Below, piece by piece: positions 560-64,000 of a stretch of DNA of 64,000 nt. The notes beneath the pieces were generated by a model. It was not told the DNA's origin. It saw only the letters and a program-made list of their open reading frames with translations, and did no database searches. The stretch lies in NCBI GenBank assembly GCA_035361425.1, contig DAOSCP010000002.1, positions 65,410-129,409 on the forward strand, read 5' to 3'. The translations under genes were made by a program, and so were the position numbers. The stretch's first letter is position 1. The number at the start of each line of letters is the position of its first letter. The DNA is from Ignavibacteriales bacterium. GTDB taxonomy: Bacteria > Bacteroidota > Ignavibacteria > Ignavibacteriales > DAOSCP01.

Positions 560-561
560 TT

Positions 562-24391: not shown

Positions 24392-24443
24392 GAAATAAAA
24401 AATAATTCTTAATTTTATATATTCTAATTAAAAATATTTTGTA

Positions 24444-26408: not shown

Positions 26409-26418
26409 AAGGTGATAT

Positions 26419-30239: not shown

Positions 30240-30253
30240 TTGTATGTTATCAG

Positions 30254-36175: not shown

Positions 36176-36210
36176 AAAAAAGCTCTCATTAAACAAGAGA
36201 GCTTTTTTTA
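36176..36210 (+). terminator. Rho-independent terminator
   Basis: AAAAAGCTCTC-ATTAAACAA-GAGAGCTTTTTTT, starting 10 nt after the stop codon at 36164-36166. A ~160-nt AT-rich gap follows. Confidence 0.75.
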
Positions 36211-39130: not shown

Positions 39131-40562
39131 GTTCTACATATTAAAGAGTTATCTTATTTTATTATTATTGTTTGATTTTGCTTATTCGCAAAGTGATTAT
39201 GAAAAACAAGCTATTTATAAAAGAATTTATGAAAATTTAGAGTATAGAACGGATGGTTTTAATGATTTGAAAAAGCAATGGTATCTTAATGAACCTATGA
39301 TTATAAGACAGATTTATAATAACTTAGTTTTAAATGGATTTTTATTACATAACGGACATCCAATAACAAATGAAGATACATTAAAACTTTTTTCTAATAA
39401 ATTTTATAATTCAAGGGTTTTGGTAAAATTACGTCAAAGATATTATGATGATGAAATAGAAAGAATGGAATTTATATTAGAAAATGAAAACCCAGGAATA
39501 GATACTGCTAGATTTATCGATCCTATTAAAGACTGGGTTTTAGTTAGAGAGGCAGTTGGGGATTCTTTATATGAGGTATTAAAAAAGAAAAAATATACTT
39601 ACACAAATTTAACAAAGGATTATTTTCAACATTATAATTTATACTTTTACGATTTGTATTTTTCGGCAATTAATCCATCGTTAATGTTTTGGGCAAGTAC
39701 GTCTGAGGCAAATACTCAATTTGATAGTGAAAGTCCATTTAATAAGTTTAATAGAGCAGATAAATATACGATGTCTTTTTTTGGGAAATGGGGAGTAGAT
39801 CAACTTTCTAAACCTGGGTGGTATTTTTCCGATTATATAGTAGGGTTAAAAATCCTTCATTTGGATATGTTGGTTAATGATCCTGATGATTTTGAATATG
39901 GGCTATATTTAGGCTTTAATTTCGGTGTAAAAGATGTTTTAGTTGAAAATTCATCATTTTTTAAACCTCGTAGAATTGATAGTAAAACCAGTAATATGTA
40001 CATAAAGGCTGCATTTAATCCTTTTACATTGCTTGGTTACGATTGGAGATATTTTAATTTAGGAGTTGAATCTTTCTATAATATAAAGGATAAACCTGTA
40101 ACTGAAGATGATATTAAAATATTACAAGAAACAGGTGCAGATTATATTTATTCACATACAATTAAAAACTTTACCACAATATATGCACAGCAAAAATATT
40201 TAACGGATGTTCTTGGTTTAGGTTATTTATTTTTAGGTATGGGGATAACATTCCATAATTATTCTTTACTGACAGCTACTGTTGATGATTCTGAATTTCA
40301 AGTTTTTGAAAATACTAAATATACAGTTCCAAGTTTTGAAATAGGATTGACTAAAAGTGGGGGGCTAATTTATAGTGAAACAATTTTTCAGTTGAATTAT
40401 AATAGTAAAGCTAAATTTGGTTTTTGGGGTATAAAATTACATATGCTAATTAGAAATAGTATTGGGTTTGATATTAAATATTTTAAGGGTTTTAGAAATG
40501 TTCCAGGTTGGCACCAAGATTCGTATTTTGTTATTAGTCCAATCATCAGGATCAATTTTTAG
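39120..40562 (+). CDS. Putative outer-membrane beta-barrel protein (hypothetical, second)
   Basis: Signal peptide ...LFDFAYS|QSDY and C-terminus ...SPIIRINF, with a terminal Phe. It overlaps the previous gene by 11 nt and ends 8 nt before the giant ORF. Confidence 0.5.
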   Translation: MHFKFYILKSYLILLLLFDFAYSQSDYEKQAIYKRIYENLEYRTDGFNDLKKQWYLNEPMIIRQIYNNLVLNGFLLHNGHPITNEDTLKLFSNKFYNSRVLVKLRQRYYDDEIERMEFILENENPGIDTARFIDPIKDWVLVREAVGDSLYEVLKKKKYTYTNLTKDYFQHYNLYFYDLYFSAINPSLMFWASTSEANTQFDSESPFNKFNRADKYTMSFFGKWGVDQLSKPGWYFSDYIVGLKILHLDMLVNDPDDFEYGLYLGFNFGVKDVLVENSSFFKPRRIDSKTSNMYIKAAFNPFTLLGYDWRYFNLGVESFYNIKDKPVTEDDIKILQETGADYIYSHTIKNFTTIYAQQKYLTDVLGLGYLFLGMGITFHNYSLLTATVDDSEFQVFENTKYTVPSFEIGLTKSGGLIYSETIFQLNYNSKAKFGFWGIKLHMLIRNSIGFDIKYFKGFRNVPGWHQDSYFVISPIIRINF

Positions 40563-40570: not shown

Positions 40571-43500
40571 ATGTTAACAAATTATAAACAATTTTGGGTA
40601 TATTTATTATTTATATTGTTTGTAAGTAGTACAAATGTTTACTCACAAACAATATCAATATCAAGTCCAGTTGCAAATGATACATTAAATTATGGAAGTA
40701 GCAAAACAATTACCTGGAATTGGACGGGTGCAAATGGTACTGCTAAAATAGAATATTCAACAAATAGTGGTACAAGTTGGATAAATATAAATTCCAATGT
40801 TACTAACAATAACGGTAGCAATACATATAATTGGAGTGTTCCTAACAATCCTTCCAATAATTGTAGAATAAGAATCACTAGTATTGATTATCCTGCAATA
40901 TCGCAAACCTCTGGTTTGTTTGTAATTAGAAGTTTGGTATTGTTATCACCATCATCTGGAAATCATATCCAAGCAGGAAAGACTTTTAATATTCAATGGA
41001 CAAGTTCGTATGTATCATCACTGAGATTAGAATATTCAACTGATAATGGTAATAATTGGAATTTGATACAAACTGGAGTAAATCCAACAGCTTCACCATA
41101 TGTATGGAATGTTCCGGATATAGTTTCAGATCAGGCGATAGTAAGAGTAAGCGACGCAACAAAGTCAATAACAAATACAAATTGTATTAAATCCCAAAGT
41201 GGAAGTTTTTATATTTGTAAATTAAGATTATTAGCACCTAATGGTGGTGAATTTTTATTTTCCAATTCAAATTATAATATACAATGGACCGCATCTAATA
41301 ATGTTTCTTTTGTAAATTTGGAGTATTCAACAGATAACGGTGGCAATTGGTATACTATTGCAAATAATTTGTCAGCATCAAGTGGGTCATATACATGGAT
41401 GGTAACAAATAATACATCAAATAATCAAGCATTAATAAGAGTATCAGATGCGAGTTATCCAAATTATGTTAATGATATTTCAGATAATAATTTTACAATT
41501 GGTAGATTACTAGTAACATCACCAAATGGAGGATTAGCCGCTGGATATTTGTCTGGTAGTACAATAACAATTACATGGTCTTCACAAAATATTTCTTTGG
41601 TAAATATTTATTATACTATTGATGGAACTTCTTATACTCCCATTGTTACAAATTATGATGCTACAAATGGCTTTTATAATTGGACTATTCCAGCTGGAAT
41701 TAATACAAATAAATTTAAAATAAAAATTGAAGATGCAAGTAATTCATCAAGATATGATGAGTCTGATTATTACTCTGTTATAAGCACAATTTCATTGAGT
41801 TCTATCTCAGCTAATATCCAAACAGGGAAAACCATAACATTAAATTGGGCAGCTGGTTCTTATTTATCCAATGTTAATATTTCATATTCAACAGATAATG
41901 GTAATTCATTCCCATACACAATAGCAACTAATATAAGTGCATCAACCGGTACTTATAATTGGGTAGTGCCGTCAGGAATTACAGGAGATAATTGTAAAAT
42001 TAAAATAACGTCAACACAATATCCTGATATTTATGCAATTAGTAATACATTTAAAATTGCAGAGTTGAATTTAACTTATCCCTTAGGAACAGATGGTTGG
42101 ATAGCAGGGGGTACTTATACTATAATGTGGAACAAATCGACAAATGTGGCAAATGTAAAAGTATATATATCTACTAATAATGGTAATACATGGGGTTCAC
42201 CACTTACAACGACATCATCCAATAGTTATGTATATACTGTTAATTCCGGCTTTGATTTTAATCAGTTTAAGGTAAAAGTTGAAGATGCTACTACAACAGA
42301 TATTTATTCTGAGACACCAATAGGATTTAAAGTCGGAAAGATAAATATTCTAAGTCCATCAACATCTGGAGAAGTATGGAATAGTGGAACGGTTAAAACA
42401 ATTTCATGGACCGCTACTACATTTATAAATATTGTTAGGCTTGAATATTCAACAAACGGTGGATTAGATTGGACTTTTATAGCAAATGTTGGAGCTACAG
42501 TTGGTAGTTATAATTGGACAGTTCCAAGTGTTTCATCCAATAACTGTGTTATAAGAATAAGTGACTCAGATGTGCCGACAATATTTGCTACATCTAATAC
42601 ATTTTCGATAGGAAATCTTATTGTAACATATCCAGACGGTGGAGAAGGATTAAATGCAAATTCTAATGTGAATATTCAATGGACGGCAAACGGAATAGCA
42701 AATGTTAATATTTATTATAGTTTAAATAATGGTGCAAATTGGATTAAAATTGCTTCAAATATTAATGCAGCAAGTGGAAGTTATACGTGGCTATTACCTG
42801 ATGTTGTTTCATCGCAATGCTTAGTTAGAGTAAGCGACGCTAATGATACCACTTATTATGATAATAGCAATGGAGCTTTTCGAATTGGTAAAATTTCTAT
42901 TATTCAACCAACAACGAATAAAATAAATCAAGGTAGTGTATATACTATTAAATGGAACGCAACATCCAATATTTCAAATGTTAATATATACTATTCAGAA
43001 AATAATGGTGCAAGCTGGAATTTAATTCAGAATAATGTTAATGCATCTTTAGGGCAGTATAATTGGAATGTACCATTTACAACAACAAGCCAAGGTAAAA
43101 TCAGAATTGAAGATGCACAAACAAATTCGCTAATTACTGCTACAAATAGTGGTAATTTTTCCATTTCATATATTACAGTAAATACTCCTAATGGAGGAGA
43201 AAATTGGTTTTCTACAAGTACACAAAATATTACGTGGACATCGAGTGCTGATGTAAGTAATGTTAAAATTTATGTATCGACTGATGGTGTTACATTTGGT
43301 TCAACGCCAATTTACAACGGACCAAATACAGGTAGTTATTCATGGGTTGTAGATGGAAATTATATTTCTACTACTGCAAGAATAAAAATTGTTGATGCAA
43401 GTGCTTCTAATGTATCTGACTCTTCTAATAATGTTTTTACAATAACACCACTACAATTAACAGCTCCCAACAATCCAATCACTTTGTATCAAGGGCAAAG

Positions 43501-49500: not shown

Positions 49501-52500
49501 AACAGTTTCAGCTTCGTCTGGTGCTTATAACTGGTTGATACCAGCTTTAGGATTAACTCCAAGCGATCAATATAAAATAAGAATATCTGCTGCTGACGAT
49601 CCAACAAAAATGGTTGAATCTGGATTATTTACAATTGGAAATGTACAACTTTCAAACTTTAATGGTGGTGAAGTTGTTCAGGCTGGAAAAGTTGTAACAA
49701 TAAATTGGACAAAAACAAGTTTTGTTAACACTGTTAATTTAAAATATACTACAAATAATGGCACAGATTGGAATACAATTGCGAGTGGTATATCTATAAC
49801 ATCTTATAATTGGAATATACCTAATATTTCATCTAATAATGTTAAAATTTTAGTTGAAGATGCTGTAGCAAATTCACTAATTAAAGATACATCTGATGCA
49901 GTATTTACTATTGCAAGATTAGTTGTAAATGTTCCTAATAATGGTGAAGTTTATCGTGAAGGTACTAAGATAAATATAACCTGGACAGCACAAAATACTA
50001 ATAATTTACGATTAGAATATTCAATTGACCACAGTAATTCATGGAATATAATAGCAAATTCTGTTAATCCAGCTTCTGGTTCATATACATGGACACTTCC
50101 ATACGGCCTTGTTAGTAAATATTTAACAATTAAAGCTTATGATGTTTCTTATCCAACAATAATGGATACAACAGATAATAAAGTTACCGTTGCAAAATTG
50201 TTAATTACAAATCCTGCTGGTGGGGAAACATGGGTTGCTAATGATACTAAGTCGATTTCATGGAATAGTCAATACATACCAGCTTCTACATATACAATCG
50301 AGTATACTACAGATAACGGTGTCAATTGGCAAACAATTGTAACAAATGTTCCGACATCAAATAATAATTATAATTGGGTATTACCATCAACTGCTTTATC
50401 TAATGTAAAAATAAGAATCAGACATAATGATAACTCTAATTTATCTGACACTCTTGATGGAACATTTACAATTGTAGCACCTAAGATTACAGTTACTCAA
50501 CCAAATGGTGGAGAAATTTTACTTAAGGATCAACCATACACAATACAATATACTCGAACACCAGATATTACAAATGTTAATATTTATTCAAGATTAGAAG
50601 GTAAAAAAGGCTGGAGATTATTAGCTGGCAATACTACAGCATTATCTTATAATTGGACTCCAGATACAGCTGGTAACTATAAAATAATAATTGTTGATTT
50701 TAATAATCCTAATGTTGTAGGTGATTCATCAGATGCATTTTGTACTGTTAAACATATACAGGTTACACAGCCTGCAGGTGGTGAAATTTGGCAAGCTGGC
50801 AAACCTTATCAAATAAAATGGGTTACTTCAAATAATATAAATACTGTTCGAATAGAATACTCTACAAATGCAGGTGGTAGCTGGCTACCTATAACTTCAA
50901 GTATTCCAGCAGCTGATCAACAATATAATTGGACAATACCTTATGCATTAGATGGAAAACAAGTTCATATTAAAGTTAGTGATGAATTAGCTAGTTCTGT
51001 TATATATGATATTTCTGATGGTTTTGCTACGATTTCTAATTTGCAAGTTGTATATCCCAATAGTAATACTGACGGTTTAGTAGAAGGTAAATCCTATAAT
51101 ATACAGTGGACTAATTCACCTTCAATTACAAACATTGATATATACTATACAGCAGATGGTGGACCACTTCAAACAATACAGGCAAATGTTCCTGCAGCGG
51201 GAGGACAATATAATTGGACTGTTCCAGTAATTAATTCAGATAATGTGAAGATTGTAATAAAAGATGCATCAAATCCGTTGATTGTTGATAGTTCCGATAA
51301 TGCTTTCAAAGTAGCTTCATTGATGGTTGTTACACCGAATGGAGGAGAAGATTTTAGAATAGGTAGAAATGCAACAATAACATGGTCTAATTCTTCCAAT
51401 ATTTCTGCAGTTAATATTTATTATTCGTTGAATAATGGTACAACCTGGTTTATTGCTGGAGTAAATGTTCCTTCAACAAATTCTGTTAACAATTATACAT
51501 GGAAAGTTCCAAATGTTTTAAGTACTACCAATGCATTAATTAAAATTATTGATGCATCAAATTCTAATATTGAAGATATAGGTGATGCAAACTTTACTAT
51601 AAGTAATCTTGTTGTAACATCTCCTAATGGAGGTGAAAGAATATCTGCAGGTAAAAAATATAATATTACATGGATAGCACAAAATGTTACAACAAACTTA
51701 AGAATTCAATATACACTCAATGGCACTAATTGGCAAGATATAGCAACCGTTCCAGGTACAACAACAAATTATGAATGGAATGTAGCTGCTGATACATCAA
51801 CAGTTAATGCAAAAATAAGGATAATGGATCCTACATTAACAGAGGGTGATACAAGTGATGCTAATTTTACAATTGGCTACATTAAAATATTAAATCCTAT
51901 TGCAGGGAATGTATATCAAACAAATAGAAATATTCAAATTTACTGGCAAGATTCTCCAAATATTGGTAGTGTAAATATCAAGTATCAAGTTGGTACATCT
52001 GTACCTGTAACAATTGTAAGTAATTACGCTTCTCCAACTAATTTATATAATTGGACTGTACCGTTAGATTTAGCACATAATAATCTTAACTTAATAATTT
52101 CTGATATTAACGCAGATGTAACTTTAGCAGATACGATAAAAATCAACACTGTAAAATTACAGTTAACTTCCTTAAATGGTGGGCAAAAAATATTAGCTAA
52201 TAAAGTAACACCTATAACATGGGCAAGTTCAAATTTAACTGGTACAATAAAAATTGAATTATCAACCGATGATGGCTTTAACTGGATAGCTATTCCTGGT
52301 GCAAGTAATGTTTCCGCAGCTGATGGAGTATTTAATTGGTTAGTCAATAATATTACTACCGGGCAAAATAGAATTAGAATTATTAGCAATAATGATAATT
52401 CTATAAGAGACTCTAGTGCATCATTCTTTATTATATCAAGATTGAAAGTAACTGATCCAACATCAATTGCAAATTATAAAGCCGGGACAACTCAAAATCT

Positions 52501-55500
52501 TAAATGGGATAATAGCAGCAATATTGGAAATATAAATATTTATTTTAGTTCCAATAATGGTTCTACCTGGACTAATTTATTTAACAATGTTTCAACAACC
52601 GGGCAAAATAAAAACTGGGTTGTTCCTTATACAACATCAAATCAATGCAGAATTAGAATAGAGGATGCACAATATCCGACAAATGCAGATACTTCTGAAG
52701 CTTTCAGTGTTTATACACCGACTATCACAGTTACAGCACCTAATTTACCAAGCAGAATATTAGTAGGTAAAACTTATAATATTACCTGGAATAGTCAGTT
52801 TGTTACTAACTTTAAAATTGAACTATCAACAAACGGTGGTGTTGATTGGAATCCTATTGTTTTATCTACAACAGGGAATAATTATAATTGGACAATACCA
52901 CAACCTTTCGATACTGTTACATCAAATAATTGTTTAATTAAAATTTCAGATGCAAGTGATAATTCAATATTCGATGTTTCTGATAATCCATTTACAATTT
53001 CATCCTTGAAATTTATTTCTCCTGTAGGCGGTGAAATTGTTCAAGTTGGAAAACATTTTACAATTAGGTGGAATAGCTCACAAATTGATAGAGTAAGAAT
53101 AGATTATTTTGATGGTACATCTTGGACACAAATTATTAATAATATTAGTGCTTCAACAGGTAATTATGTGTGGACTGTCCCAAATATATTTTCATCTGCT
53201 ATTAAATTCCGTTTATATGATGCTGATAATTTATCAAACTATATTGAAAGTAATACAATTTCTACTGCTGATATTGCTGTAATTTATCCTGTAGGTGGTG
53301 AGGTAATACAAACTGGTCAAACAGTTAAAATAAAATGGAATTATCAAAATATTTCAAATGTAAAACTTGAGTATTCATTAGAAAATGGTGCTGAAGGAAC
53401 ATGGAATACAATTGTCAATAGTGTTCCTGCAACTACTGGCTCAACGGGTTATAACTGGACTATTGATACTTCCTTATCTTCAAGGGATTGCCTAATTAGA
53501 ATTTCGGAAGTTGGTAATAGTAATGTTTTTGCAACAAGTTACAGCACATTTAAAATTGGTAATATCGTAGTATTATCACCAAATGGCGGCGAAGTATTTA
53601 AGTCTGGTCAATCATATACTATAAGATGGTATAATAAACCATCAACATCTTCTGTTAAGTTATATTATTCAACAAATAATGGTACAAACTGGAATTTAAT
53701 TACAACAACAACAACGCAGCCTTATGGAGGAAGTTTTGACTGGGTACCATCAATATCTAATTCAAGCCCGAATATGTTAATTAAAGTTGTTGATTCAGAA
53801 GGTGATATAAAAGATTCATCTGATGCAACATTTATCTATAATAATTTAAGGATAGTATCTCCTAATAATGGTGAAATTTTCAGACAAGGAACACCTGTTA
53901 ATATTCAATGGACAAGTAACCTAAATCCAGTAACACTAGAATACAGTACTGATAATGGCCTAAATTGGAATTTAATCGTAAGTGGTAAGAATGGAACAAC
54001 ACATACATGGGTTACACCTACAAACTTGCTTTCAAACAATATAATTATTAAAGTAAAAGATGATAACAATAATCTTATTAATGATACAACTGATAACAGA
54101 ATAAAAGTAATAGAATTTAAGATAACTCAACCTAATGGTTTAGAAACATGGGTTGGTAATAGTGTACAAAAAATCAAAGTTTTACATAAGTTATTACCAT
54201 CAAGTTTAATAAATTTATATTACACTACTAATAATGGTACAAATTGGAATACAATTGCAACAAATATTTCTGCAAATGGAGATAGTACTATTTATAATTG
54301 GTTAGTACCGAAAATATCTTCTAATAATGTAAAAGTAAAAATTGTTGACGCAACAAGAAGTAATATTGCAGATACATCAGATAATGTATTTACAATTACA
54401 AATCCACAAGTAACAGTAATTTCGCCTAACGGTGGTGAAGTATTACCTATAAATAAACCTACAACAATTACATGGACGAAATCTGTAGATGTGGCAAATG
54501 TTAATGTGTACACAAGGTTAGAAAATAAAAGATGGTATAGACCAATTGTATCAGGCTTTGGAGGCACTTCTATATCATGGACACCTGATACAGCAGGCAA
54601 TTATAGAATTATTGTTTGTGATGCTGCTAATCCATCATCTGTAATAGATTCATCAGATGCTTTTGTAAGTGTTTATAAATTAAATATCACATCTCCTAAT
54701 GGCGGCGAAAATTGGATAGAAGGTAAGAGATATAATATAACCTGGAATGCATCAATTAACTTAACAAATGTAAATATAGATTATTCAACAAATGGCGGTT
54801 CGAATTGGATTTCTCTTGTTAATAATATTCCTGCTTCATCTGGTTCATATAGTTGGTTAATTCCTTCAGGTATTACAGGTACAAATACAAAAATTAGAGT
54901 AAGAAGTTCAAATTATGGAAATATAATTAAAGATTCATCCGCAAATTCATTTACAATACATAAGATTAGATTATTAAGTCCAAATTTAGCATCTGATGGT
55001 TTTGTAATTGGAAAACAAATGAATATTAGTTGGGATGTTTCTAACTCAACAATACCAAATATAAAAATTAGTTATCTAACACCACAAACAAGTGGAATTA
55101 TATCTGGTAGTTTTGCAACAACGACAAATTCAGGTTATTTTAGTGTTCCTAATGTATCATCTGATAGTGTTAAAATTATAATTTCAGATGTTCTAAATCC
55201 TAATATTGCAGATACAAGTGATAATTATTTCAAAATTGCACAATTGGTTGTAACATCACCTGTTGGTGGAGAAAATTGGCAAATAAATAGAAGAAGACTA
55301 ATTACATGGAATAATTCATCAAATGTCAATTTTATAAATTTAGAGTACACATTAAATGGTATAACATGGTTTACTATAGCTAATAATGTAAATGCATCTT
55401 TAGGTAGTTATAATTGGTTGGTACCTGATGTTTTAAGTTCAACCAATGCTCTGGTAAGAATAACAGATAATAATAATGTAAATATTAAAGATACATCAGA

Positions 55501-58500
55501 TAATGTATTTGCTATTTTTAGGTTTGATATCACAAGTCCAAATGGTGGAGTAAAAATAGCTGCAGGAAAGAAATATAATATAACATGGAATGCTCAAAAT
55601 GTTTCGTTACCAATGCAATTACAATATACTTTTGATGGTAATAATTGGAATAACATAGCTGGTGTAAATTCTACTGATCAATCATATTTATGGGATGTAC
55701 CAGCAGATACATCAACATCCAATTTAAAAATTAGAATAATTGATGAAATGTCATCATTTGGTGATACATCTGATGCAGCAAATTCAATTGCTTATTCAAA
55801 GATACTTAATCCTGTTTTAACTTCAAATTGGCAAACAGGCAAGGCTTATCCAATTAGATTGCAACTTTCACCAAATGTTAATTTTATAAACTTATTATAT
55901 AGAATTGGCAATAATACACCTGTAAGTATTGCTAACAATATTGAAAGAACTAGCGAATATCAATGGTCAGTTCCTTTAACCTTAGTTTCAAACGATATAA
56001 GAATAATAGTACAAGACGCAAATGCAACAACTACTATTGCTGATACATCAAACATTTTCAATACAAGAAGATTGAATTTAACATCATTTACTGGTGGTGA
56101 AAAAGTAATAGCTGGCAAAACTTATAAAATTACCTGGATAGCTCAAAATCTTGGAAATATTAAAATTGAGTTTTCAAAAGATGGTGGATTAAATTGGGCA
56201 ACAGTAACAGGTGGCGGTAATATTAATTCAGCACTTGGTGAATTTGATTGGGTAGTAAATAACGAAGTAGGCTCACAAAATAAAATAAGACTTGTTAGTT
56301 TAGATTATGGAAATGTCCGAGATTCAAGTGCTACAAACTTTACAATTTCAGAACTCAAAATTACTAATCCAACAGCTGCAAGTAATTTTAAGGGTGGTAC
56401 AACACAAACAATAAGTTGGACAAGTAGTATAGATATAAACAAAGTAAATATTTATTACTCAACAAATAATGGAACAAATTGGATTGTAATAAAATCAAAT
56501 CATGATTATGTAGGGACTTCAGCAAATTATAACTGGATAGTTCCAAATGTTACATCTTCGCAATGTAAAGTTAAAATTGAAGATGCTCAAAATCCAGGTA
56601 ATTATGATACAAGTGCTACATTTAGTATCTATACACCAACAATTACTGTTTTAACACCAAATACTAATATTAGATTACTGGCTACTAAAACATATGCAAT
56701 AACATGGTCAAAGCAATATGTCAATAATGTTAAGTTGGAATATTCAACTAATGGTGGTTCAAGCTGGAAATTAATAGCATCACCACTGGCAGGAACATCT
56801 TATAATTGGACAATACCAAATGATACAACAAATAACGCAAAAATAAAAATTACAGATTTAAGCGATACTACAATTTATGATATGAGCGATGTATCGTTTA
56901 CAATTTCATCAATAAACTTTGTAAGTCCATTAGGCGGTGAAATTGTACAAATTAATAAACCATTTAACATTAGATGGAGATCCGCATATATTGATAAAGT
57001 TAGAATAGATTATACATTAGATGGTACTAATTGGATACAAATTATAAACAATTATGATGCAAATGTAGGTAGTTATGCTTGGAATGTAACTAATTACTCC
57101 ACAACACTTAAATTTAGAATTTATGATGCAGTTAATACTAATAACTTTATAGAAAGCAACAGTATAACATCGGCTAATCTTGTAATTACGCAACCTATAG
57201 GTGGGGAAATTTATCAAAGTGGTAATAATATTAAGATTAAATGGACATCACAAAATATCTCAAATGTAAAACTTGAGTATTCATTAGAAAATGGTGCTGA
57301 AGGAACATGGAATACAATAGTTAACAGTGTTTCTGCAGCTGTTGGTACTACAGGTTATGACTGGTTAGTTGATACTTCAATTTCTACAAGAAGATGTTTA
57401 ATAAGAATTTCTGAAGTTGATAATCCAAATGTAAATGCTACTAATAATTCAGTATTTAAAATAGGTAATATTGTTGTTCTTTCTCCTAATGGCAATGAAG
57501 TAAGACAAAACCAACAAGCCGATACAATTAGATGGTATAATAAACCATCAACATCTTCTGTTAAATTGTATTATTCAACTAATAATGGCGGTAACTGGAC
57601 ATTAATTACAACTGTATCTACAAATCCATATGGTGGTAGTTATATCTGGACACCAAATATATCAAATCCAACAACTAATATGCTCATAAAAGTTGAGGAT
57701 GCTGAAGGAGTTATTAAAGATTCATCTAATACTACTTATACAATGGTTAATCTTGTTTTGGTTTCTCCAAATGGTGGTAATTATTGGCAAGCAGGAACAA
57801 TTCAAAAAATCAAATGGAATGCAACTAACTTAGGAAATATAAGCATTAGATATACAACTAATGACGGTGTAAATTGGAATAATGTTGTTTCTAATATTGC
57901 TTCTACACTCGGAGAATATGATTGGGCAATCCCAACTTATATATCATCTAAAGATTGTAGAATTAAATTAATATCTGTTTCTGATTCTAATAGAATTTAT
58001 TCTATTTCTGCTAATAAATTTAAGATTGGCAAAGTTACTTTAACTACATTTACCGGAAATGAAAAAGTAAAAGTTGGAACATCTCATACTATCAGATGGA
58101 CTAGATCATCTAGTATTGATTTTGTAAATCTTTATTACTTCGATGGTTCTAATTGGCAAACTATAGCAACAAATGTTGATGCTTCTCTTAATAAATATGT
58201 ATGGACAATTCCTAATACTCCTACTGTTAATGCAAGAATAAGAATTTCAGATGCAAATTCTAATTTGAATATTAAAGATTCATCAGGAACAACTTTCAGA
58301 ATTAGTAGAATTTATGTATTACAACCAAATGGAAACGAAAATTATAGAGCAGGTTTAGTTTATCCTATAAATTGGAATGTTAGCAGTGATATAACAAACT
58401 TAAAATTAGAATATACTACAGATGATGGTATCAATTGGTATACAATAACAAGTAATACAAATGCTGCTACAGGAACTTATAATTGGAGAGTACCAGATAC

Positions 58501-61500: not shown

Positions 61501-64000
61501 TACTGATAATGGTTTAACCTGGCATATTGTTGCAACAAATACATCGGCAACATCAGGTGTTTGGTTAGTTCCCGAAACTCCAACTGATAAAGCTTTAATT
61601 AGAGTATCAGATGCTACAAATCCATCAATGTATGATGTTTCTGATAAAAACTTTACTATAGCTCAGCTCAAAATTTTAGCTCCAAATGGGGGAGAACGAA
61701 TTAAAGCACTTTCAAATTATACAATTAGGTGGCAAAATGCATTTACAAGTAATAAAGTAATAATTGAATATTCAACTAATAGTGGTAATTCATGGAATTT
61801 AATTACAAATAACGCGAGTGTTTCATCAAAACAATATAATTGGAATGTACCAGATATTATAAGCAATACATTCAGAATTAAAATTAGCGATAGCTTAAAT
61901 ACCTATATTTATGATGTTTCTGATTCTAATTTTACAATCTATAAACCTGAGATAACTTTATTAACATTTAATAGCGGTAAATATCAGGCTGGTAAAACAT
62001 ATCCAATAAGATGGAATAGCCAGAATGTAGCTAATGTAACAATTCAATACTCTTTAAATAATGGTAACAATTGGCATAATATTATAACTAATTATCCAGC
62101 TGTAAATGGTATTTATAATTGGACTATTCCTTCTGATTCTGCTTCTGTTAATGCAAGAATTCGAGTAGTTGATTATTCTGATAATAATTATTATGGAATG
62201 AGTACAAATGCATTTACAATTGCTCAAATTAGGTTATTATCACCTATTGGTGGAGAACAATTACAAATCGATAAATTTAGCGATATTAGATGGTATGCTC
62301 AAAATGTTGCTAATGTAAGAATTGAGTTATCTACAGATAATGGAATAAATTGGCAATCAATTAATAATTTAAGTTCTGTGAATGGAAATAATTTATTTAG
62401 CTGGCGTGTAGAAAATAAACCATCTAACGTTTGTAAGATAAGAGTAAGAGATTTGAACTATCCAGAAATAAAAGATTCAACTGCTGGTATATTTAGAATT
62501 TCAAACGTACAGTTACTATCTCCTAATGGAAATGAAAGATGGCAAGAAAACAAAACATATCGTATAGAATGGGCAGCTTCATCTAATGTAAATAATGTTG
62601 TTTTAGAATATTCAACCAACTCGGGTAATAACTGGAATATCATTCAATCAGTATATCCTGCTAATGTTGGTTATTATAATTGGAATATTCCTTTGAATAC
62701 TAGTTCCAATAAATGTCAAATAAGAATTAAAGATTATGATGCTAATTCTGTATTTGATACTACTGATGCTAAATTTACAATTGTTAATTTAAGACTAATT
62801 ACACCTAATGGTGGCGAAGTATGGCAAGCTAATTCAACTCAAAGAATTAGATGGCAAGCAAATTTAGTTGGAAATATTAAACTTGAATATACTACAAGCT
62901 TTGGTAATAATTGGACAACTATTGTTGATAATTATCCAGTTGATTCTAATTATTTTGATTGGAATATACCATTGGCAGCTCTTTCAGATAATGCTCAAAT
63001 AAGAATATCAGAATATAATAATGCATCAATATTTGATACATGTGATAACAGATTTAAAATCTTTATTCCTGAAGTAAAAGTAATTTCACCAAATGGCAAT
63101 GAAAATCTTTTAGTTGGAAAAACATATCAAATTCTTTGGAATGCAAAATATATAAATAATGTAAAAATTGAATATACTACAGATAATGGCGGAAGCTGGT
63201 CTACAATTGCTACAGTCCCTGCAAGTAATGGTTTATATAATTGGTTGATACCAAATTATCCATCACGAAATGTAAAAATTAAAATTTCTGATGCGAACAA
63301 TCCATTTTTCTTTGATGATTCTGATCAAAGATTTAACATTGTTAATATTATAATTTACTCACCAAATGGTGGAGAAAACTGGCAAGCAAGAACTACAAAA
63401 CAAATAAAATGGAAAACATATTCAATAGATAATATTGCTTTACATTATTCTACTGATAATGGTACAACTTGGTTGCCTATTGGTACAGCCAATGCTTTAT
63501 TAGACACTACTTATTCCTGGATTGTACCGAACATTCCAACACCAGAGGCTCGTATAAGAATTAGAATGGCTAATGATACTACTGTTTTTGTAACTAGTGC
63601 ATCTACTTTCACTATATCTAATATTGAACTTACAAATTTTGTTGGTGGAGAAAGTGCAAAAATAGGAAAAACATATAATATAAGATGGCAAAGCTATTAT
63701 ATTTCTAATGTTAAAATTGAATACTCAACTAATAATGGAGCTTCGTGGACACCAATAGTTAATAGTGTTCCTGCTAATATTGGCTTGTATCCATGGGTAG
63801 TACCAAATATTGTTTCAAATAATTACTTAATTAAAGTATCCAGCACAGCAGATTATACTATAGCAGATTCCTCTAAACTACCATTTAGAGTTGCAAATAT
63901 TACATTGAATAATCCACGCGGTACTGAAGTATGGCAGGTAGGTACTGTTAAAACACTAAGCTGGACTAAAACTAACAATGTCTCAAGAATTAAATTAGAA
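40571..64000 (+). CDS. Giant secreted repeat protein (at least 7,810 aa, 3' end beyond the window): ~84 tandem Ig-like/beta-sandwich-type modules, each with an Asp-box-like motif
   Basis: ATG 40571 is followed by signal peptide MLTNYKQFWVYLLFILFVSSTNVYS|QTIS. My spot translations in the frame (pos mod 3 = 2) at the start, at ~47.10 kb, at ~52.14 kb and over the last codons (...LSWTKTNNVSRIKLE) all stay in the repeat consensus. The ORF track lists no closed + strand ORF anywhere in 40.6-64.0 kb, as expected if this frame never meets a stop in the window. Confidence 0.85.
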   Translation, partial: MLTNYKQFWVYLLFILFVSSTNVYSQTISISSPVANDTLNYGSSKTITWNWTGANGTAKIEYSTNSGTSWININSNVTNNNGSNTYNWSVPNNPSNNCRIRITSIDYPAISQTSGLFVIRSLVLLSPSSGNHIQAGKTFNIQWTSSYVSSLRLEYSTDNGNNWNLIQTGVNPTASPYVWNVPDIVSDQAIVRVSDATKSITNTNCIKSQSGSFYICKLRLLAPNGGEFLFSNSNYNIQWTASNNVSFVNLEYSTDNGGNWYTIANNLSASSGSYTWMVTNNTSNNQALIRVSDASYPNYVNDISDNNFTIGRLLVTSPNGGLAAGYLSGSTITITWSSQNISLVNIYYTIDGTSYTPIVTNYDATNGFYNWTIPAGINTNKFKIKIEDASNSSRYDESDYYSVISTISLSSISANIQTGKTITLNWAAGSYLSNVNISYSTDNGNSFPYTIATNISASTGTYNWVVPSGITGDNCKIKITSTQYPDIYAISNTFKIAELNLTYPLGTDGWIAGGTYTIMWNKSTNVANVKVYISTNNGNTWGSPLTTTSSNSYVYTVNSGFDFNQFKVKVEDATTTDIYSETPIGFKVGKINILSPSTSGEVWNSGTVKTISWTATTFINIVRLEYSTNGGLDWTFIANVGATVGSYNWTVPSVSSNNCVIRISDSDVPTIFATSNTFSIGNLIVTYPDGGEGLNANSNVNIQWTANGIANVNIYYSLNNGANWIKIASNINAASGSYTWLLPDVVSSQCLVRVSDANDTTYYDNSNGAFRIGKISIIQPTTNKINQGSVYTIKWNATSNISNVNIYYSENNGASWNLIQNNVNASLGQYNWNVPFTTTSQGKIRIEDAQTNSLITATNSGNFSISYITVNTPNGGENWFSTSTQNITWTSSADVSNVKIYVSTDGVTFGSTPIYNGPNTGSYSWVVDGNYISTTARIKIVDASASNVSDSSNNVFTITPLQLTAPNNPITLYQGQSYNITYDYDATKVSSVKIEFSSTGGNSWTNIVASIPATGVYNWTVPAVTTNNGLIRITSNDNPAFYDVSDNTFSINTISLTSPNGNENWMAGTTKNITWVNIPGVSALNLYYSLDGGNSWRLFKTGINAGAQTYSWVVPDSASNMVRIKIAASDNPAISDISDNNFTISSLTLLSPLGGEKLLAGQQHYITWDAQYIQSVKIELTTNGGSTWISPEIATGVPGANGTYLWTIPNNPTTQARIRITSDNPNDNTITKTSPANFTISRLQITNPISTTAFQEGQTATIQWTADNIDFVNIDISTNGGIEWNNIATGYPALGGSYNWTVPINYSSNNCIIRIYDQSNFVRIATSQTFNISKLNITSPTTSDKWFIGSTKKIQWQSTNVSLVNILYSTDGGATWPITIASNYPANAGYYDWQVSGLVTTQGRIRIVSVDKPSITATTGNFQTSSLNITQPAGNESWQVGTNKSINWTYGNITSVYLYYSTDGSNWLQIGAGPINAALQTYNWTIPDISSNTVRIKIADAADTSRNAVSNPFKIGKITVLYPNGNEILQSGKTINITWNNYSSISNVKIEYSTNAGGSWNTIVNSVQANLGAYPWVIPNTTGNSYRIRISDADSPSPTEFINDISDNNFTVKRIDLISPVSGEYFQIGKTKQISWNVGNIATLRIDLSTNGGSDFFNIAEISGANTSYNLKLTNPAYVSTACYLRIYDKDNPTIVSELSSPFTIKRLDLISPNGGEIKQAGVVDTIKWQASGVSNITLQYSTDGGLNFSNSIVNNHPANLGYYYWTIPSNLYGNNIKVRIVDYDVSSISDTSDNNFSISQLAITQPTSTSKFNVGLPLIVNWSANNLTQINIDLSTDGGLSYPYNIVSNYNATLNTCTWVIPLTLTPSSNCVIKITDANNPTTYILSQQFSIAKLKILVPNDGTQNWQTVTQQTITWQASSNVSNIRIEYTSNNGVSWNTIINSVPATTGNYLWTIPNTAASNLVKIRITDVSNNNVIDSSDNNFNIRRLDLTSPNGGESFAAGSSQQISWIANNVNNVKIEYQTSNGGTWTHIATVPANSSPYTWTVPATTSSEYRIRISDATYSTIQSQSANTFKVGQITVTRPNTAETFQVGKTLPIRWNASSNINFVNIAFSTDNGTTWYYIANNVSASAGAYNWTILNKPSNNCLIRITDASTDTTVSGHIRDISDVAFSVKYLKLNIPNGGETWKIGSNQNITWETSSNISNIHIYLSTNSGNSWGITLGNNVGAGAGSFLWSNIGNYPYSTCKVKIIDASNNSISDSSDNAFKIGNISIIEPVALANYKTNSPMVIKWTSTSNINTVNIYYSADGVSWNQQIASNLPSTTGTNEFTWVTPLTATNTAKIKIVDAESGSTIEEISSTFRITDLNIISPVSTDKWQVGTSKNIIWSGQGVSNVNISILDNSNISYSIATNTNLTTYNWSIPDIPFFQAPSYRIVVTDASNPDNSDTSEIFTICKVKVDSPNGGENIYAGSTYTINWTTYNVTNVKIEYSSNNGTSWNTIVGNIASNNGSNSYNWLVPNDTSSNYRIRVSDFSNSTINDISDNRFTVSKITVLSPNGGENWQIGTTKTITWRSNGISQVNIYLNYGAGNFTIATNVSSVGGSGSYNWAIPDNPLLYTTNAKIIISSSTDPTKADTSDNVFTISKLVVISPNGSENWFKNSISTISWESRNISSVKIEYSTDNGINWKNIATVTSVNGINNYNWLVPADTSLNCIVRISNATNSTIYDVSDNKFNILGLFITQPIANAKWRNGLLKTISWRANYSTNVNIYILTPTGKSLIASNVTGNSWGGNYTWSILDSNKYYTNSNRIIIEDFGDPSRCDTTNYSFSISKLQITTPNTNVNWFAGSSKIISWVSQNISNVVIEYSSNNGGSWSTITTTTSNNGTNNYSWTVPSTASSQCLIRIKDVADGNLLSDTSNTTFTISNLQLLSPLSNARWQMGKVNTIQWTASNIANVKIEYYDIATANWLTIATVSASSGAYNWLIPALGLTPSDQYKIRISAADDPTKMVESGLFTIGNVQLSNFNGGEVVQAGKVVTINWTKTSFVNTVNLKYTTNNGTDWNTIASGISITSYNWNIPNISSNNVKILVEDAVANSLIKDTSDAVFTIARLVVNVPNNGEVYREGTKINITWTAQNTNNLRLEYSIDHSNSWNIIANSVNPASGSYTWTLPYGLVSKYLTIKAYDVSYPTIMDTTDNKVTVAKLLITNPAGGETWVANDTKSISWNSQYIPASTYTIEYTTDNGVNWQTIVTNVPTSNNNYNWVLPSTALSNVKIRIRHNDNSNLSDTLDGTFTIVAPKITVTQPNGGEILLKDQPYTIQYTRTPDITNVNIYSRLEGKKGWRLLAGNTTALSYNWTPDTAGNYKIIIVDFNNPNVVGDSSDAFCTVKHIQVTQPAGGEIWQAGKPYQIKWVTSNNINTVRIEYSTNAGGSWLPITSSIPAADQQYNWTIPYALDGKQVHIKVSDELASSVIYDISDGFATISNLQVVYPNSNTDGLVEGKSYNIQWTNSPSITNIDIYYTADGGPLQTIQANVPAAGGQYNWTVPVINSDNVKIVIKDASNPLIVDSSDNAFKVASLMVVTPNGGEDFRIGRNATITWSNSSNISAVNIYYSLNNGTTWFIAGVNVPSTNSVNNYTWKVPNVLSTTNALIKIIDASNSNIEDIGDANFTISNLVVTSPNGGERISAGKKYNITWIAQNVTTNLRIQYTLNGTNWQDIATVPGTTTNYEWNVAADTSTVNAKIRIMDPTLTEGDTSDANFTIGYIKILNPIAGNVYQTNRNIQIYWQDSPNIGSVNIKYQVGTSVPVTIVSNYASPTNLYNWTVPLDLAHNNLNLIISDINADVTLADTIKINTVKLQLTSLNGGQKILANKVTPITWASSNLTGTIKIELSTDDGFNWIAIPGASNVSAADGVFNWLVNNITTGQNRIRIISNNDNSIRDSSASFFIISRLKVTDPTSIANYKAGTTQNLKWDNSSNIGNINIYFSSNNGSTWTNLFNNVSTTGQNKNWVVPYTTSNQCRIRIEDAQYPTNADTSEAFSVYTPTITVTAPNLPSRILVGKTYNITWNSQFVTNFKIELSTNGGVDWNPIVLSTTGNNYNWTIPQPFDTVTSNNCLIKISDASDNSIFDVSDNPFTISSLKFISPVGGEIVQVGKHFTIRWNSSQIDRVRIDYFDGTSWTQIINNISASTGNYVWTVPNIFSSAIKFRLYDADNLSNYIESNTISTADIAVIYPVGGEVIQTGQTVKIKWNYQNISNVKLEYSLENGAEGTWNTIVNSVPATTGSTGYNWTIDTSLSSRDCLIRISEVGNSNVFATSYSTFKIGNIVVLSPNGGEVFKSGQSYTIRWYNKPSTSSVKLYYSTNNGTNWNLITTTTTQPYGGSFDWVPSISNSSPNMLIKVVDSEGDIKDSSDATFIYNNLRIVSPNNGEIFRQGTPVNIQWTSNLNPVTLEYSTDNGLNWNLIVSGKNGTTHTWVTPTNLLSNNIIIKVKDDNNNLINDTTDNRIKVIEFKITQPNGLETWVGNSVQKIKVLHKLLPSSLINLYYTTNNGTNWNTIATNISANGDSTIYNWLVPKISSNNVKVKIVDATRSNIADTSDNVFTITNPQVTVISPNGGEVLPINKPTTITWTKSVDVANVNVYTRLENKRWYRPIVSGFGGTSISWTPDTAGNYRIIVCDAANPSSVIDSSDAFVSVYKLNITSPNGGENWIEGKRYNITWNASINLTNVNIDYSTNGGSNWISLVNNIPASSGSYSWLIPSGITGTNTKIRVRSSNYGNIIKDSSANSFTIHKIRLLSPNLASDGFVIGKQMNISWDVSNSTIPNIKISYLTPQTSGIISGSFATTTNSGYFSVPNVSSDSVKIIISDVLNPNIADTSDNYFKIAQLVVTSPVGGENWQINRRRLITWNNSSNVNFINLEYTLNGITWFTIANNVNASLGSYNWLVPDVLSSTNALVRITDNNNVNIKDTSDNVFAIFRFDITSPNGGVKIAAGKKYNITWNAQNVSLPMQLQYTFDGNNWNNIAGVNSTDQSYLWDVPADTSTSNLKIRIIDEMSSFGDTSDAANSIAYSKILNPVLTSNWQTGKAYPIRLQLSPNVNFINLLYRIGNNTPVSIANNIERTSEYQWSVPLTLVSNDIRIIVQDANATTTIADTSNIFNTRRLNLTSFTGGEKVIAGKTYKITWIAQNLGNIKIEFSKDGGLNWATVTGGGNINSALGEFDWVVNNEVGSQNKIRLVSLDYGNVRDSSATNFTISELKITNPTAASNFKGGTTQTISWTSSIDINKVNIYYSTNNGTNWIVIKSNHDYVGTSANYNWIVPNVTSSQCKVKIEDAQNPGNYDTSATFSIYTPTITVLTPNTNIRLLATKTYAITWSKQYVNNVKLEYSTNGGSSWKLIASPLAGTSYNWTIPNDTTNNAKIKITDLSDTTIYDMSDVSFTISSINFVSPLGGEIVQINKPFNIRWRSAYIDKVRIDYTLDGTNWIQIINNYDANVGSYAWNVTNYSTTLKFRIYDAVNTNNFIESNSITSANLVITQPIGGEIYQSGNNIKIKWTSQNISNVKLEYSLENGAEGTWNTIVNSVSAAVGTTGYDWLVDTSISTRRCLIRISEVDNPNVNATNNSVFKIGNIVVLSPNGNEVRQNQQADTIRWYNKPSTSSVKLYYSTNNGGNWTLITTVSTNPYGGSYIWTPNISNPTTNMLIKVEDAEGVIKDSSNTTYTMVNLVLVSPNGGNYWQAGTIQKIKWNATNLGNISIRYTTNDGVNWNNVVSNIASTLGEYDWAIPTYISSKDCRIKLISVSDSNRIYSISANKFKIGKVTLTTFTGNEKVKVGTSHTIRWTRSSSIDFVNLYYFDGSNWQTIATNVDASLNKYVWTIPNTPTVNARIRISDANSNLNIKDSSGTTFRISRIYVLQPNGNENYRAGLVYPINWNVSSDITNLKLEYTTDDGINWYTITSNTNAATGTYNWRVPDTASTGYRIRISDVTFSSEIADTSDNIFTVKRLNLITPDASTNWLANTTQQIKWNTVGVSQIILQYTTNNGSTWNNITTNPISASTGQYNWLTPNISSTNVKVRIYDYSVPNISDTSASFTIYKPVISLNSPNGGESWAVGSTKNITWNSAYVTRLKIEYSTDGGQNYILINDNVNPTTGIFNWVVPNTPTKFAKIRLTDYNNSGVIDTSDSYFRIKTLQLVKPNGAEYYQVLRTKPIQWNAGGIDNIRIDYSTNNGANWSNLTTINAESGIYNWNITPAFATTNNYKIRITDIDDISITDESDNTFSVRNLRLLKPVGNEAYMYDSLVNIQWTASVNIQNVKLQYRISDASSWVDITGASANLGVYNSWKAPLSASNFYKVRIIDSVSNEVYDSTAAYFKVGNINITTNLTGTSIQVGKELTINWTNTNNINTVKIELSTNGGSGWSTLTSNYVTGANGGSYTFTVPNNVTNNAIIKVSDQNNSNIYSQTASFTINNLTITKPITPESWKVASTQQIKWTSYNISNVNIYISTNNGANWLLIDNNVTSNNGNNVYNWVVANYASNQCLIKITDAVDENIASTISPNNFKIGDISVTSPTAGAKWQAGINKRIQWTNTTNITNVNIEYSLNGTTWLPIATNIPASTGYYDWKVVDNPSTTVQIRVTDAQGININSVSPVFTIVKIKMDYPNGNEFIAANSNVIVKWQSSNIVNVSLDYSTNGGSNWYPLASNQPAGMLQVNWTVPNLLTTANNCLIRIYDRSDPTIVDTTDNPFTIVVPKITVLKPDNSSYWQAGKIKKIQWTSEFINDVKIEFSSNDGNSWVTVISSIPANTNEYNWMIPSVPSDKYKIRISDVNNSALWDTSRVFTVSLLNIVSPNGGENIKVGTVLPIVFNAYYTGNVKIQYSTNNGNTWANDVVSTLGITNGSNTYNWTVPNIPYDNIKLRIYAISDTSINDYTDGSFRVANIQVVVPNDSVIWQAGTIKTLQWIKSSNIGNVNIDYSTDNGLTWHIVATNTSATSGVWLVPETPTDKALIRVSDATNPSMYDVSDKNFTIAQLKILAPNGGERIKALSNYTIRWQNAFTSNKVIIEYSTNSGNSWNLITNNASVSSKQYNWNVPDIISNTFRIKISDSLNTYIYDVSDSNFTIYKPEITLLTFNSGKYQAGKTYPIRWNSQNVANVTIQYSLNNGNNWHNIITNYPAVNGIYNWTIPSDSASVNARIRVVDYSDNNYYGMSTNAFTIAQIRLLSPIGGEQLQIDKFSDIRWYAQNVANVRIELSTDNGINWQSINNLSSVNGNNLFSWRVENKPSNVCKIRVRDLNYPEIKDSTAGIFRISNVQLLSPNGNERWQENKTYRIEWAASSNVNNVVLEYSTNSGNNWNIIQSVYPANVGYYNWNIPLNTSSNKCQIRIKDYDANSVFDTTDAKFTIVNLRLITPNGGEVWQANSTQRIRWQANLVGNIKLEYTTSFGNNWTTIVDNYPVDSNYFDWNIPLAALSDNAQIRISEYNNASIFDTCDNRFKIFIPEVKVISPNGNENLLVGKTYQILWNAKYINNVKIEYTTDNGGSWSTIATVPASNGLYNWLIPNYPSRNVKIKISDANNPFFFDDSDQRFNIVNIIIYSPNGGENWQARTTKQIKWKTYSIDNIALHYSTDNGTTWLPIGTANALLDTTYSWIVPNIPTPEARIRIRMANDTTVFVTSASTFTISNIELTNFVGGESAKIGKTYNIRWQSYYISNVKIEYSTNNGASWTPIVNSVPANIGLYPWVVPNIVSNNYLIKVSSTADYTIADSSKLPFRVANITLNNPRGTEVWQVGTVKTLSWTKTNNVSRIKLE
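40640..64000 (+). repeat. Coding tandem repeat array, period ~280 nt (~93 aa), ~84 diverged copies
   Basis: Module consensus read by eye: [LIV]x[LIV]xSPNGGExWxxGxxxxIxWxxxxxxxVxIEYS[TS][DN]xGxxWxxIxxxxxxxxGxYxWxVPxxxSxxCxIR[IV]xDxxxxxxxDxSDxxFxI. I located module starts manually about every 270-290 nt (40640, 40935, 41222, 41510 ... 63625, 63905). Confidence 0.85.

Follow-up and report, generated by a model that had tools for sequence, protein, structure and literature searches.

The window analysed here, 64,000 nucleotides (nt) of contig DAOSCP010000002.1 (GenBank assembly GCA_035361425.1, positions 65,410 to 129,409 of the forward strand), comes from an uncultured Ignavibacteriales bacterium of the phylum Ignavibacteriota, within the Fibrobacteres-Chlorobi-Bacteroidetes (FCB) group. 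It holds most of a giant gene, which is real and complete and which lies in a conserved, unannotated gene cluster found across Ignavibacteria. We propose, with a probability of about 0.6, that its product is a long surface fibre or adhesin exported through a type IX secretion system (T9SS) and equipped with its own anchoring set, by analogy with SprB and GhpA. The parts of this proposal that concern a real gene and a T9SS substrate are much firmer than those that concern anchoring and adhesion.

The window covers the first 7,810 of the 9,120 codons of the giant gene (40571..64000, forward strand). The ATG at 40571 is preceded by an in-frame TAG at 40535, and the frame then runs without a stop to base 64000. 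With a stop probability of 0.094 per codon at the window's 28% G+C, or about one stop per 11 codons, a stop-free run of 7,810 codons has a chance of about 1e-335; each of the five other frames contains between 294 and 1,105 stops over the same stretch. The initial annotation of this DNA, made from the window alone, had described an open reading frame with a signal peptide that starts at 40571 and stays open to the window end for at least 7,810 codons. This description is exact, and the full translation is likewise free of in-frame stops.

The true end of the gene was found in other assemblies. Two Joint Genome Institute (JGI) contigs of 58 and 83 kb, located through the identical sequence of the gene directly upstream (39120-40562), which is present on many public contigs, carry the giant gene called at 9,120 residues, with its end inside the contig. 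An exhaustive HMMER search with the last 1,200 residues encoded in the window gave as its top match a C-terminal fragment of 4,719 aa (P0121) from another assembly, in which query residues 1-1200 align to residues 2210-3409. The fragment corresponds to residues 4,402-9,120 of the giant protein and differs from the window's translation at 7 of 3,409 overlapping residues. Together with its contig locus (L154; NCBI GCA_035371645.1), it supplies the missing 1,310 residues, the DNA of the gene end and the sequence downstream. Scans of contigs from genome and metagenome collections with the last 300 aa of the window returned only relatives at ≤43% identity.

The full protein of 9,120 aa consists of a signal peptide, 92 modules that occupy residues 30-8,617 and a 503-residue tail, encoded by a gene of 27.4 kb of which the window holds the 5' 86%. 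Its mass is about 997 kDa when the signal peptide and the sorting domain are left out, its pI is 6.0, and Asn, Ser, Thr and Ile make up 44% of its residues. The initial annotation placed it among the largest bacterial proteins. This does not stand, since predicted bacterial proteins reach 85,804 aa (bioRxiv 10.1101/2023.11.21.568195); in UniProt alone, over 41,000 entries reach 5,000 aa or more (PMC11573180), and the size of the giant protein alone is not exceptional.

The same sequence was recovered repeatedly. The two JGI contigs show 2 and 4 mismatches to the window in 21.4 kb, and a third assembly (GCA_035371645.1) shows 7 differences in 10.2 kb (53774-64000 of the window against L154:63-10289). 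Misassembly is no concern, because the modules share a mean pairwise identity of only 32-33% (range, 14-70%) and the longest exact DNA repeat measures 59 nt; no more than 34 31-mers recur. The view that so diverged an array was unlikely to be an assembly artefact is upheld by the agreement of at least three independent assemblies.

A sister species (locus L155; JGI 3300010327, Ga0116246_10000598) has the same locus, with a barrel protein 79-80% identical. Its giant aligns collinearly along 3,329 aa, with gaps in 11 columns, and identity is 71.5% in register versus 31-35% when the alignment is shifted by whole modules; each module therefore keeps its own identity. By the Nei-Gojobori method, these 3,329 aa give a pN of 0.19, a pS of 0.61 and a ratio of nonsynonymous to synonymous divergence (dN/dS) of 0.18, which is approximate because synonymous sites are near saturation. 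A ratio near 1, which the initial annotation had associated with relaxed constraint, was not seen. Module by module, the ratio lies between 0.06 and 0.33 in all 34 of the first modules that yielded a value (module 17 gave none, its dS being saturated), a range that resembles that of the neighbouring genes. Every module examined is under purifying selection.

From residue 30 to the tail, the protein is built of one type of module. A self-built hidden Markov model finds 84 successive modules in the window, each of 87-100 aa and without linkers: modules 1-83 are complete and contiguous (40658..63904, forward strand), and module 84 is cut at the window end (63905..64000, forward strand), with modules 84-92 and the tail extending beyond. 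This is exactly the number first estimated, about 84 modules of about 93 aa. By profile matches and structural modeling, the modules are diverged Kre9/KNH-like beta-sandwiches with an Asp-box. The Pfam family PF10342 (Kre9_KNH) scores 78.4, 71.5 and 28.1 bits on three 1,000-aa segments (cutoff, 24.6) and matches 49 of 83 single modules at an E-value of ≤0.01 (best, 4.8e-8), which bears out the Kre9/KNH-like immunoglobulin (Ig) fold suggested earlier. PF21471 is also matched by the module family, and NCBIfam gave no match to the modules.

Structure prediction for three consecutive modules, another step proposed with the initial annotation, points the same way. The AlphaFold model of modules 22-24, for which 81 three-module windows served as the input alignment, is all beta and consists of three beta-sandwich beads with 8-9 strands per module (predicted local distance difference test [pLDDT], 96.4; predicted template modeling score, 0.88). 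Foldseek searches with this model retrieved only generic arrays of Ig, Fn3 and macroglobulin domains, including a fragment of GhpA (9flw_A). Searches of PDB sequences with module profiles found only a hairpin of the reelin Asp-box and a weak Fn3-like match, and no close relative has been solved. The Asp-box, S-x-D-x-G-x-x-W, occurs in its strict form in 15 of the 92 modules and in a loose form, [ST]x[DN]xGxx[WFY], in 66; Pfam BNR reaches 35.9 bits in one segment (cutoff, 27), and alignments to reelin subrepeat B are confined to the "YSTDNGxxW" hairpin, which is the Asp-box. The Asp-box counts here as a motif and is no evidence of a sialidase-type propeller.

A single higher-order signal is present in the array, an old duplication that spans about 14 modules. 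Modules 36-47 (50492..53851, forward strand) are 36-70% identical to modules 50-61 (54416..57757, forward strand), which lie 14 modules or 1,308 residues further on, versus a background of 0.32; a fainter resemblance begins at module 33. In the sister species, the called gene has 7,812 aa, or 9,120 minus 1,308, and this difference equals the offset of the duplication; the sister may have lost one copy, or the lineage of the giant gene may have gained one. The comparison with the sister gene covers the modules before module 36.

Both ends of the protein carry predicted targeting signals. The N-terminus, MLTNYKQFWVYLLFILFVSSTNVYS followed by QT, looks on inspection like a Sec signal peptide of residues 1-26 (40571..40648, forward strand), in which a basic n-region precedes 14 hydrophobic core residues and a cleavage site of the small-x-small type, predicted between VYS and Q. 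At the other end, beyond the window and read from P0121 and L154, residues ~9,040-9,120 match the T9SS sorting-domain models TIGR04183 (46.0 bits; cutoff, 23) and PF18962 (37.9 bits; cutoff, 27). The initial annotation had suggested looking for such a domain at the true end, and both models match above their cutoffs. The type B model CHU_C (PF13585) scores 20.9 bits over the same residues, under its cutoff of 27 and under the type A model. On these profile scores, the giant protein is a member of the T9SS type A substrate class, as it is of PF10342. The T9SS has been placed in the FCB superphylum, and possible T9SSs have been described in Ignavibacteriae (PMC11205867; PMC5837995).

Predicted cleavage exposes an N-terminal Gln in the giant protein and in three secreted upstream proteins alike (after VYS, AYS, LYG and LYG; predicted sites at 40646-40651, 39186-39191, 37529-37534 and 36424-36429, forward strand). 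An N-terminal Gln after signal peptidase cleavage is known as the "Q-rule" of Bacteroidetes (PMC5837995); here it appears in a genome of Ignavibacteriales.

The tail is shared beyond this species. Five giants linked to the same cluster have a common conserved C-terminal region of about 510 aa, in which a beta-sandwich, an Fn3 domain, a dockerin-like segment, a weakly cohesin-like domain and the type A sorting domain follow one another. Pfam fn3 matches four of the five tails (best E-value, 4.7e-6), and the sorting domain is found in all five. In the dockerin-like segment, relatives have a canonical first calcium loop (DFNGDNVIDLVD) followed by a degenerate second one; Dockerin_1 matches the tail of one relative at 5.7e-4. 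The cohesin-like part is very weak, with an E-value of 0.034 in one of the five tails. Homology between this part and the cohesin-like domain of the downstream lipoprotein was considered and is not significant (E-value, 0.14). No RTX match was found in the tail.

That lipoprotein, of 278 aa with the lipobox LFAGC, starts 16 nt after the giant gene on L154, and a lipoprotein gene follows the giant gene in every locus in which the end of the latter is visible. It combines a Y_Y_Y Ig-like domain, present in all five family members, with a cohesin-like domain: Pfam Cohesin matches four of the five members (best E-value, 2.6e-5), and the six PDB profile matches are all cohesins (best E-value, 0.0024). 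With a dockerin-like segment in the tail and a cohesin-like lipoprotein encoded next to it, the fibre may have a noncovalent anchor, either in place of another attachment or on top of it.

Upstream, five genes on the forward strand complete the conserved cluster. In 15 other loci, homologues of these genes immediately precede a giant repeat gene and keep their order; the loci that carry a name belong to Melioribacteraceae, Ignavibacteriaceae or other Ignavibacteria. The cluster-linked giants have a signal peptide, uninterrupted modules (46-52, versus 92 here) and the same tail of about 510 aa. Gene 1 (35044..35559; homologues at the same position in L010, L026 and L155) encodes a small inner-membrane protein of 171 aa that is predicted to cross the membrane twice, with an invariant Glu within helix 2, and that has a coiled coil on the cytoplasmic side; it has no Pfam, NCBIfam or PDB sequence match. 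Gene 2 (35576..36166; conserved in L006, L010, L026, L028 and L155) encodes a bitopic membrane protein of 196 aa in which an N-terminal helix with an invariant Glu and an invariant ERD motif precede a domain of about 150 aa; it has no match in any of these libraries, and its dN/dS versus the sister species is 0.09. Gene 3 (36370..37473; conserved in L006, L010, L026, L028, L095 and L155) encodes a secreted protein of 367 aa (predicted cleavage between LYG and Q) without a Pfam or NCBIfam match, and its dN/dS versus the sister species is 0.22.

Between genes 2 and 3 lies the only long intergenic gap of the cluster (203 nt). Directly after gene 2, a strong terminator-like hairpin with flanking A and T runs can be read from the sequence (36176..36208, forward strand; AAAAAAGCTCTC, a loop of 9, and GAGAGCTTTTTT). 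If it acts as predicted, it would split the two small membrane genes and the GH13 gene preceding them from the rest of the cluster. Promoter and terminator scans returned sites no commoner than in shuffled sequence of this AT-rich DNA; the terminator scan covers loops of 3-8 nt and so does not list this hairpin. From 36370 to the giant gene, the spacing between genes is 1, -11 and 8 nt.

Genes 4 and 5 may encode outer-membrane proteins. The product of gene 4 (37475..39130; 551 aa; 18 aligned homologues) has a signal peptide and a conserved C-terminal ...RYRYG/AF end; it has no PDB, Pfam or NCBIfam match, and we call it a candidate barrel from this terminal aromatic motif alone. Its homologues are always paired with gene 5, directly upstream of a giant repeat gene. 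Gene 5 (39120..40562; 480 aa; 19 aligned homologues) ends 8 nt before the giant ATG and has a dN/dS of 0.09 versus the sister species. Its product, a candidate beta-barrel, starts with a signal peptide, which an alpha/beta domain follows, and finishes in ...SPIIRINF/Y (...SPxIRINY/F in the family). In the AlphaFold model, residues 52-120 follow a beta-alpha-alpha-beta-beta order, and 14 long antiparallel strands follow from residue 175. Foldseek matches at an E-value of ≤0.001 are outer-membrane barrels (the BamA complex, OmpU and OmpG), and those at lower ranks are nearly all outer-membrane proteins; BamA and FhaC are among the matches, with TM-scores of about 0.2. Omp85/TpsB transporters have one or more POTRA domains and a 16-stranded barrel (PF01103 or PF03865); gene 5 has no Pfam match. 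The idea that genes 4 and 5 are paralogues was rejected (hhalign probability, 6%). In most distant relatives (L006, L010, L026, L028, L091 and L095), the candidate outer-membrane pair is tandemly duplicated; the window has one pair.

In the mechanism that we propose, the giant protein would cross the inner membrane by the Sec pathway and the outer membrane through the T9SS, with the type A sorting domain at its C-terminus as the guide. Type A substrates are taken from the translocon by PorV and are then either released or attached to lipopolysaccharide (PMC12635249). Because a type A substrate is handed over in this way, the C-terminal tail would be the end at the cell and the N-terminus the distal one. 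The mature chain would form 92 linker-less beta-sandwich beads which, at about 4 nm per bead, would add up to a fibre of about 0.35-0.4 µm. The tail may hold this fibre via lipopolysaccharide attachment, via binding of the dockerin-like segment to the cohesin-like domain of the lipoprotein, or via both. The two upstream candidate barrels would constitute a dedicated outer-membrane platform; the barrel pairs suggest such a base by analogy with the one that PorP and PorE homologues are proposed to form for GhpA and with SprF of SprB. The whole would be a multivalent fibre reaching far from the cell surface, used in flocs and biofilms for attachment or as a spacer. It is thus export, anchoring mode, fibre length and biological role that we infer for the giant protein.

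Several observations weigh against this proposal. The giant gene is known here from sequence alone, and at the strain scale there is no support for constraint: all 7 strain differences are nonsynonymous, which is not significant (neutrality would give this about 1 time in 6). The protein lacks a separate tip domain for ligand binding, module 1 standing directly after the signal peptide, so the term "adhesin" is taken from the architecture only. None of SprA/Sov, PorV, PorU and GldK-N is encoded within the 64-kb window, and the upstream genes show no similarity to PorP/SprF, PorV or a known T9SS part in searches of Pfam (E-value, ≤0.001) and of the T9SS models of NCBIfam (≤1); profiles of the barrel families gave no significant match and no T9SS component among PDB sequences. 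No need for barrel proteins of their own is known for type A substrates. The barrel model of gene 5 is of moderate confidence only (pLDDT, 68), because its alignment is thin: a word-indexed protein search, which for the giant protein reached only relatives of up to about 3,500 aa although others of 4,000-6,900 aa exist, gave 5-6 relatives, and more than 25 copies of the protein are present in the loci collected. The structural matches of this model have low TM-scores (0.2-0.47). As for the noncovalent anchor, the giant's own tail scores an E-value of 0.2 with Dockerin_1 and 24.4 bits with NF041540 (cutoff, 29), and the organism's own lipoprotein scores 18.8 bits with Cohesin, under the cutoff of 24.1.

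Two giant T9SS substrates guide the comparison. GhpA, the "grappling hook" of Aureispira, has 5,898 aa with 52 Ig-like repeats in the stem of a 240-nm fibre (bioRxiv 10.1101/2024.01.29.577165). As with GhpA and its GhpB/GhpC, genes for outer-membrane basal proteins adjoin the fibre gene, the basal role being predicted here, and a GhpA fragment is among the structural matches of the module model noted above. GhpA has features of its own, an N-terminal hook domain, disulfide-stabilized heptamers and PorP and PorE homologues as neighbours, whereas the giant protein has no tip domain, a Kre9/KNH-like Asp-box repeat, a type A sorting domain and neighbours that match no PorP or PorE model. SprB, the gliding adhesin of Flavobacterium johnsoniae, has 6,497 aa, a type B sorting domain and a carrier, SprF, of the PorP family, which is disulfide-bonded to the moving GldK track (PMC12635249). 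The giant protein resembles SprB in being giant, repetitive and of T9SS type, with genes for outer-membrane partners alongside (both export and barrels being predicted); it differs in that the type B model stays under its cutoff (21 versus 27 bits), no PorP/SprF homologue is adjacent and the barrel C-termini have no cysteine pair. Since a type B sorting domain and a PorP-family neighbour were both looked for and neither was found, the giant protein is likened to SprB and GhpA in its presumed function and is not a member of their class.

Two other kinds of protein share single traits with it. The giant RTX adhesins of the type I secretion system (T1SS), such as LapA, SiiE and the Marinomonas ice-binding adhesin, have Ig-like extender regions, chains of about 50-120 linker-less beads of about 100 aa that form fibres of hundreds of nanometers standing out from the outer membrane. 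They have no Sec signal peptide and carry C-terminal RTX repeats with a T1SS signal, an N-terminal TolC plug and distal ligand-binding domains, and ABC/MFP/TolC genes lie beside theirs. The giant protein has none of these features and has instead a Sec signal peptide and a tail with Fn3, dockerin-like and T9SS parts; the MacB-type ABC genes of the window (68-3033) lie 37 kb away and are unrelated to it. The fungal founders of PF10342, Kre9/Knh1 and the Ser-Thr-rich glycosylphosphatidylinositol (GPI)-anchored wall proteins, belong to the same Pfam domain family. They are small GPI-anchored or secreted wall proteins with a single N-terminal copy, whereas the giant protein is bacterial and has 92 copies with an Asp-box.

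A bolder extension of the surface-fibre proposal would take the seven conserved genes as a new envelope-spanning surface-fibre apparatus of Ignavibacteria. Besides the megadalton fibre and the cohesin lipoprotein, it would comprise the two proteins of the inner membrane, the periplasmic one and the outer-membrane barrels, which are unrelated to PorP and come as one pair or two; the inner-membrane pair may be a new, stator-like source of energy. We regard this as speculative and rather unlikely; if true, it would mean that cohesin-dockerin binding docks a T9SS substrate of type A on an outer-membrane base of its own and that the substrate is not simply tied to lipopolysaccharide.

Among the alternatives, the one that survives best starts from the same export. 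Besides being attached, T9SS substrates of type A can end up free in the medium (PMC12635249), and the giant protein might be shed as a matrix fibre, a scaffold of flocs or biofilms in which the tails link fibres to one another and to the lipoprotein. The lack of a tip domain would fit, and a tail with dockerin-like and weak cohesin-like parts could self-associate. However, the cohesin assignment in the tail is the very weak one given above (0.034, one of five tails), and every relative has the giant gene set between conserved genes for membrane proteins and for the lipoprotein, which argues for cell-bound assembly. We consider a shed fibre unlikely.

Genes 1 and 2 invite a different idea, that of an adhesin moved actively, along the cell surface or by rotation at it, as SprB is, with these two genes encoding a proton-driven, stator-like pair and the periplasmic protein and the barrels transmitting force. 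SprB is a comparable giant T9SS adhesin (PMC12635249). The topology of the pair is that of GldL/GldM or ExbB/ExbD (a two-helix protein with an invariant Glu in helix 2 and a one-helix protein with invariant acidic residues and a periplasmic domain), and the pair keeps its upstream position in distant relatives. Against this, the profiles of genes 1 and 2 are unlike those of GldL/PorL, GldM/PorM, ExbB/D and MotA/B: the sole PorL match (7sat_C) has an E-value of 0.95 and lies in the coiled coil, and Pfam gives no match at an E-value of ≤10. A GldL/GldM-like identity for the two genes has no support in these sequence searches. Moreover, the periplasmic part of gene 2, of about 150 aa, is too short alone to span the periplasm, the terminator-like hairpin parts the pair from the rest of the cluster and the sorting domain is of type A, not the type B of SprB. 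A moved adhesin seems distinctly improbable.

The gene that precedes the cluster raises the question of polysaccharides. A secreted GH13/CBM48 (pullulanase-like) enzyme is encoded at 32995-35031, ending 12 nt before cluster gene 1, and this arrangement is also present in the sister species. The 92 modules might each bind carbohydrate weakly and so keep glucans or other polymers close to the cell, where they would be degraded, and F5/8 type C (discoidin) matches in 16 of 83 modules, as well as matches to the chitobiase C-terminal domain, would be in keeping with it. Both sets of matches are weak, however, the reelin matches cover the Asp-box hairpin only, and no binding site is conserved in the modules beyond the residues of the fold core. 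In distant relatives the GH13 gene is unlinked to the cluster, and we find a polysaccharide-capturing fibre decidedly doubtful.

An assembly artefact or a decaying pseudogene, which a long repeat array known from metagenome assemblies only and the exclusively nonsynonymous strain differences might bring to mind, is scarcely credible given at least three independent assemblies with the same sequence and the same 9,120-aa product, module copies about 33% identical with no DNA repeat longer than 59 nt, a dN/dS of 0.18 with preserved module order versus the sister species and 27 kb of 28% G+C DNA without a stop.

The wider neighbourhood does not seem to belong to the cluster. A MoxR/DUF58/VWA (BatA-like) operon (28397-32981) and a chemotaxis cluster with two methyl-accepting chemotaxis proteins, a CheA/CheW fusion, a hybrid kinase and a response regulator (16965-26817) are unlinked to the giant cluster elsewhere. 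Inclusion of the GH13 gene and the MoxR/VWA operon in the conserved unit was considered and rejected, as they are unlinked in distant loci. Farther upstream, two adjacent open reading frames (6043-6729 and 6941-7432) match positions 1-73 and 121-194 of the 221 positions of N6_N4_Mtase and are probably a disrupted methyltransferase gene.

The module family is broad. It comprises 14,726 cluster representatives at an E-value of ≤0.001 and 2,371 at ≤1e-30, many of them of 2,000-6,900 aa, from metagenome-assembled genomes of Ignavibacteria, Omnitrophota, WOR-3, Bacteroidota and Latescibacterota. The architecture is thus not rare, and it is already in the databases under generic names: relatives are annotated as "T9SS type A sorting domain-containing protein" or "Ser-Thr-rich GPI-anchored membrane family protein." These relatives have the same module (PF10342 and PF21471), often with PF18962, and the cluster-linked ones have the whole architecture and the tail. 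At 9,120 aa, the giant protein is the longest family member found, the next having 6,941 aa. The statement that no function had been described for such a protein agrees with the literature, in which a full-text search for PF10342 gave fungal papers only; we found no paper on bacterial members of the module family, none of which has been studied experimentally as far as we searched. What we regard as new is the conserved, unannotated accessory cluster, in which a type A substrate is paired with its own candidate barrels and a cohesin lipoprotein.

In Bacteroidota, giant T9SS fibres of the SprB and GhpA type drive gliding and the capture of prey; only a handful have been examined, all of them from that phylum. 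Ignavibacteria would carry a related but distinct design, with a different repeat fold, a type A sorting domain and unannotated accessory genes. More than 14,000 family representatives in at least five phyla share the module, none with an assigned function, and the cluster described here offers testable handles on them: the barrel that may hold the fibre, the possible cohesin-dockerin anchoring of a T9SS substrate and the relation between the number of modules, from 46 to 92, and the reach of the fibre.

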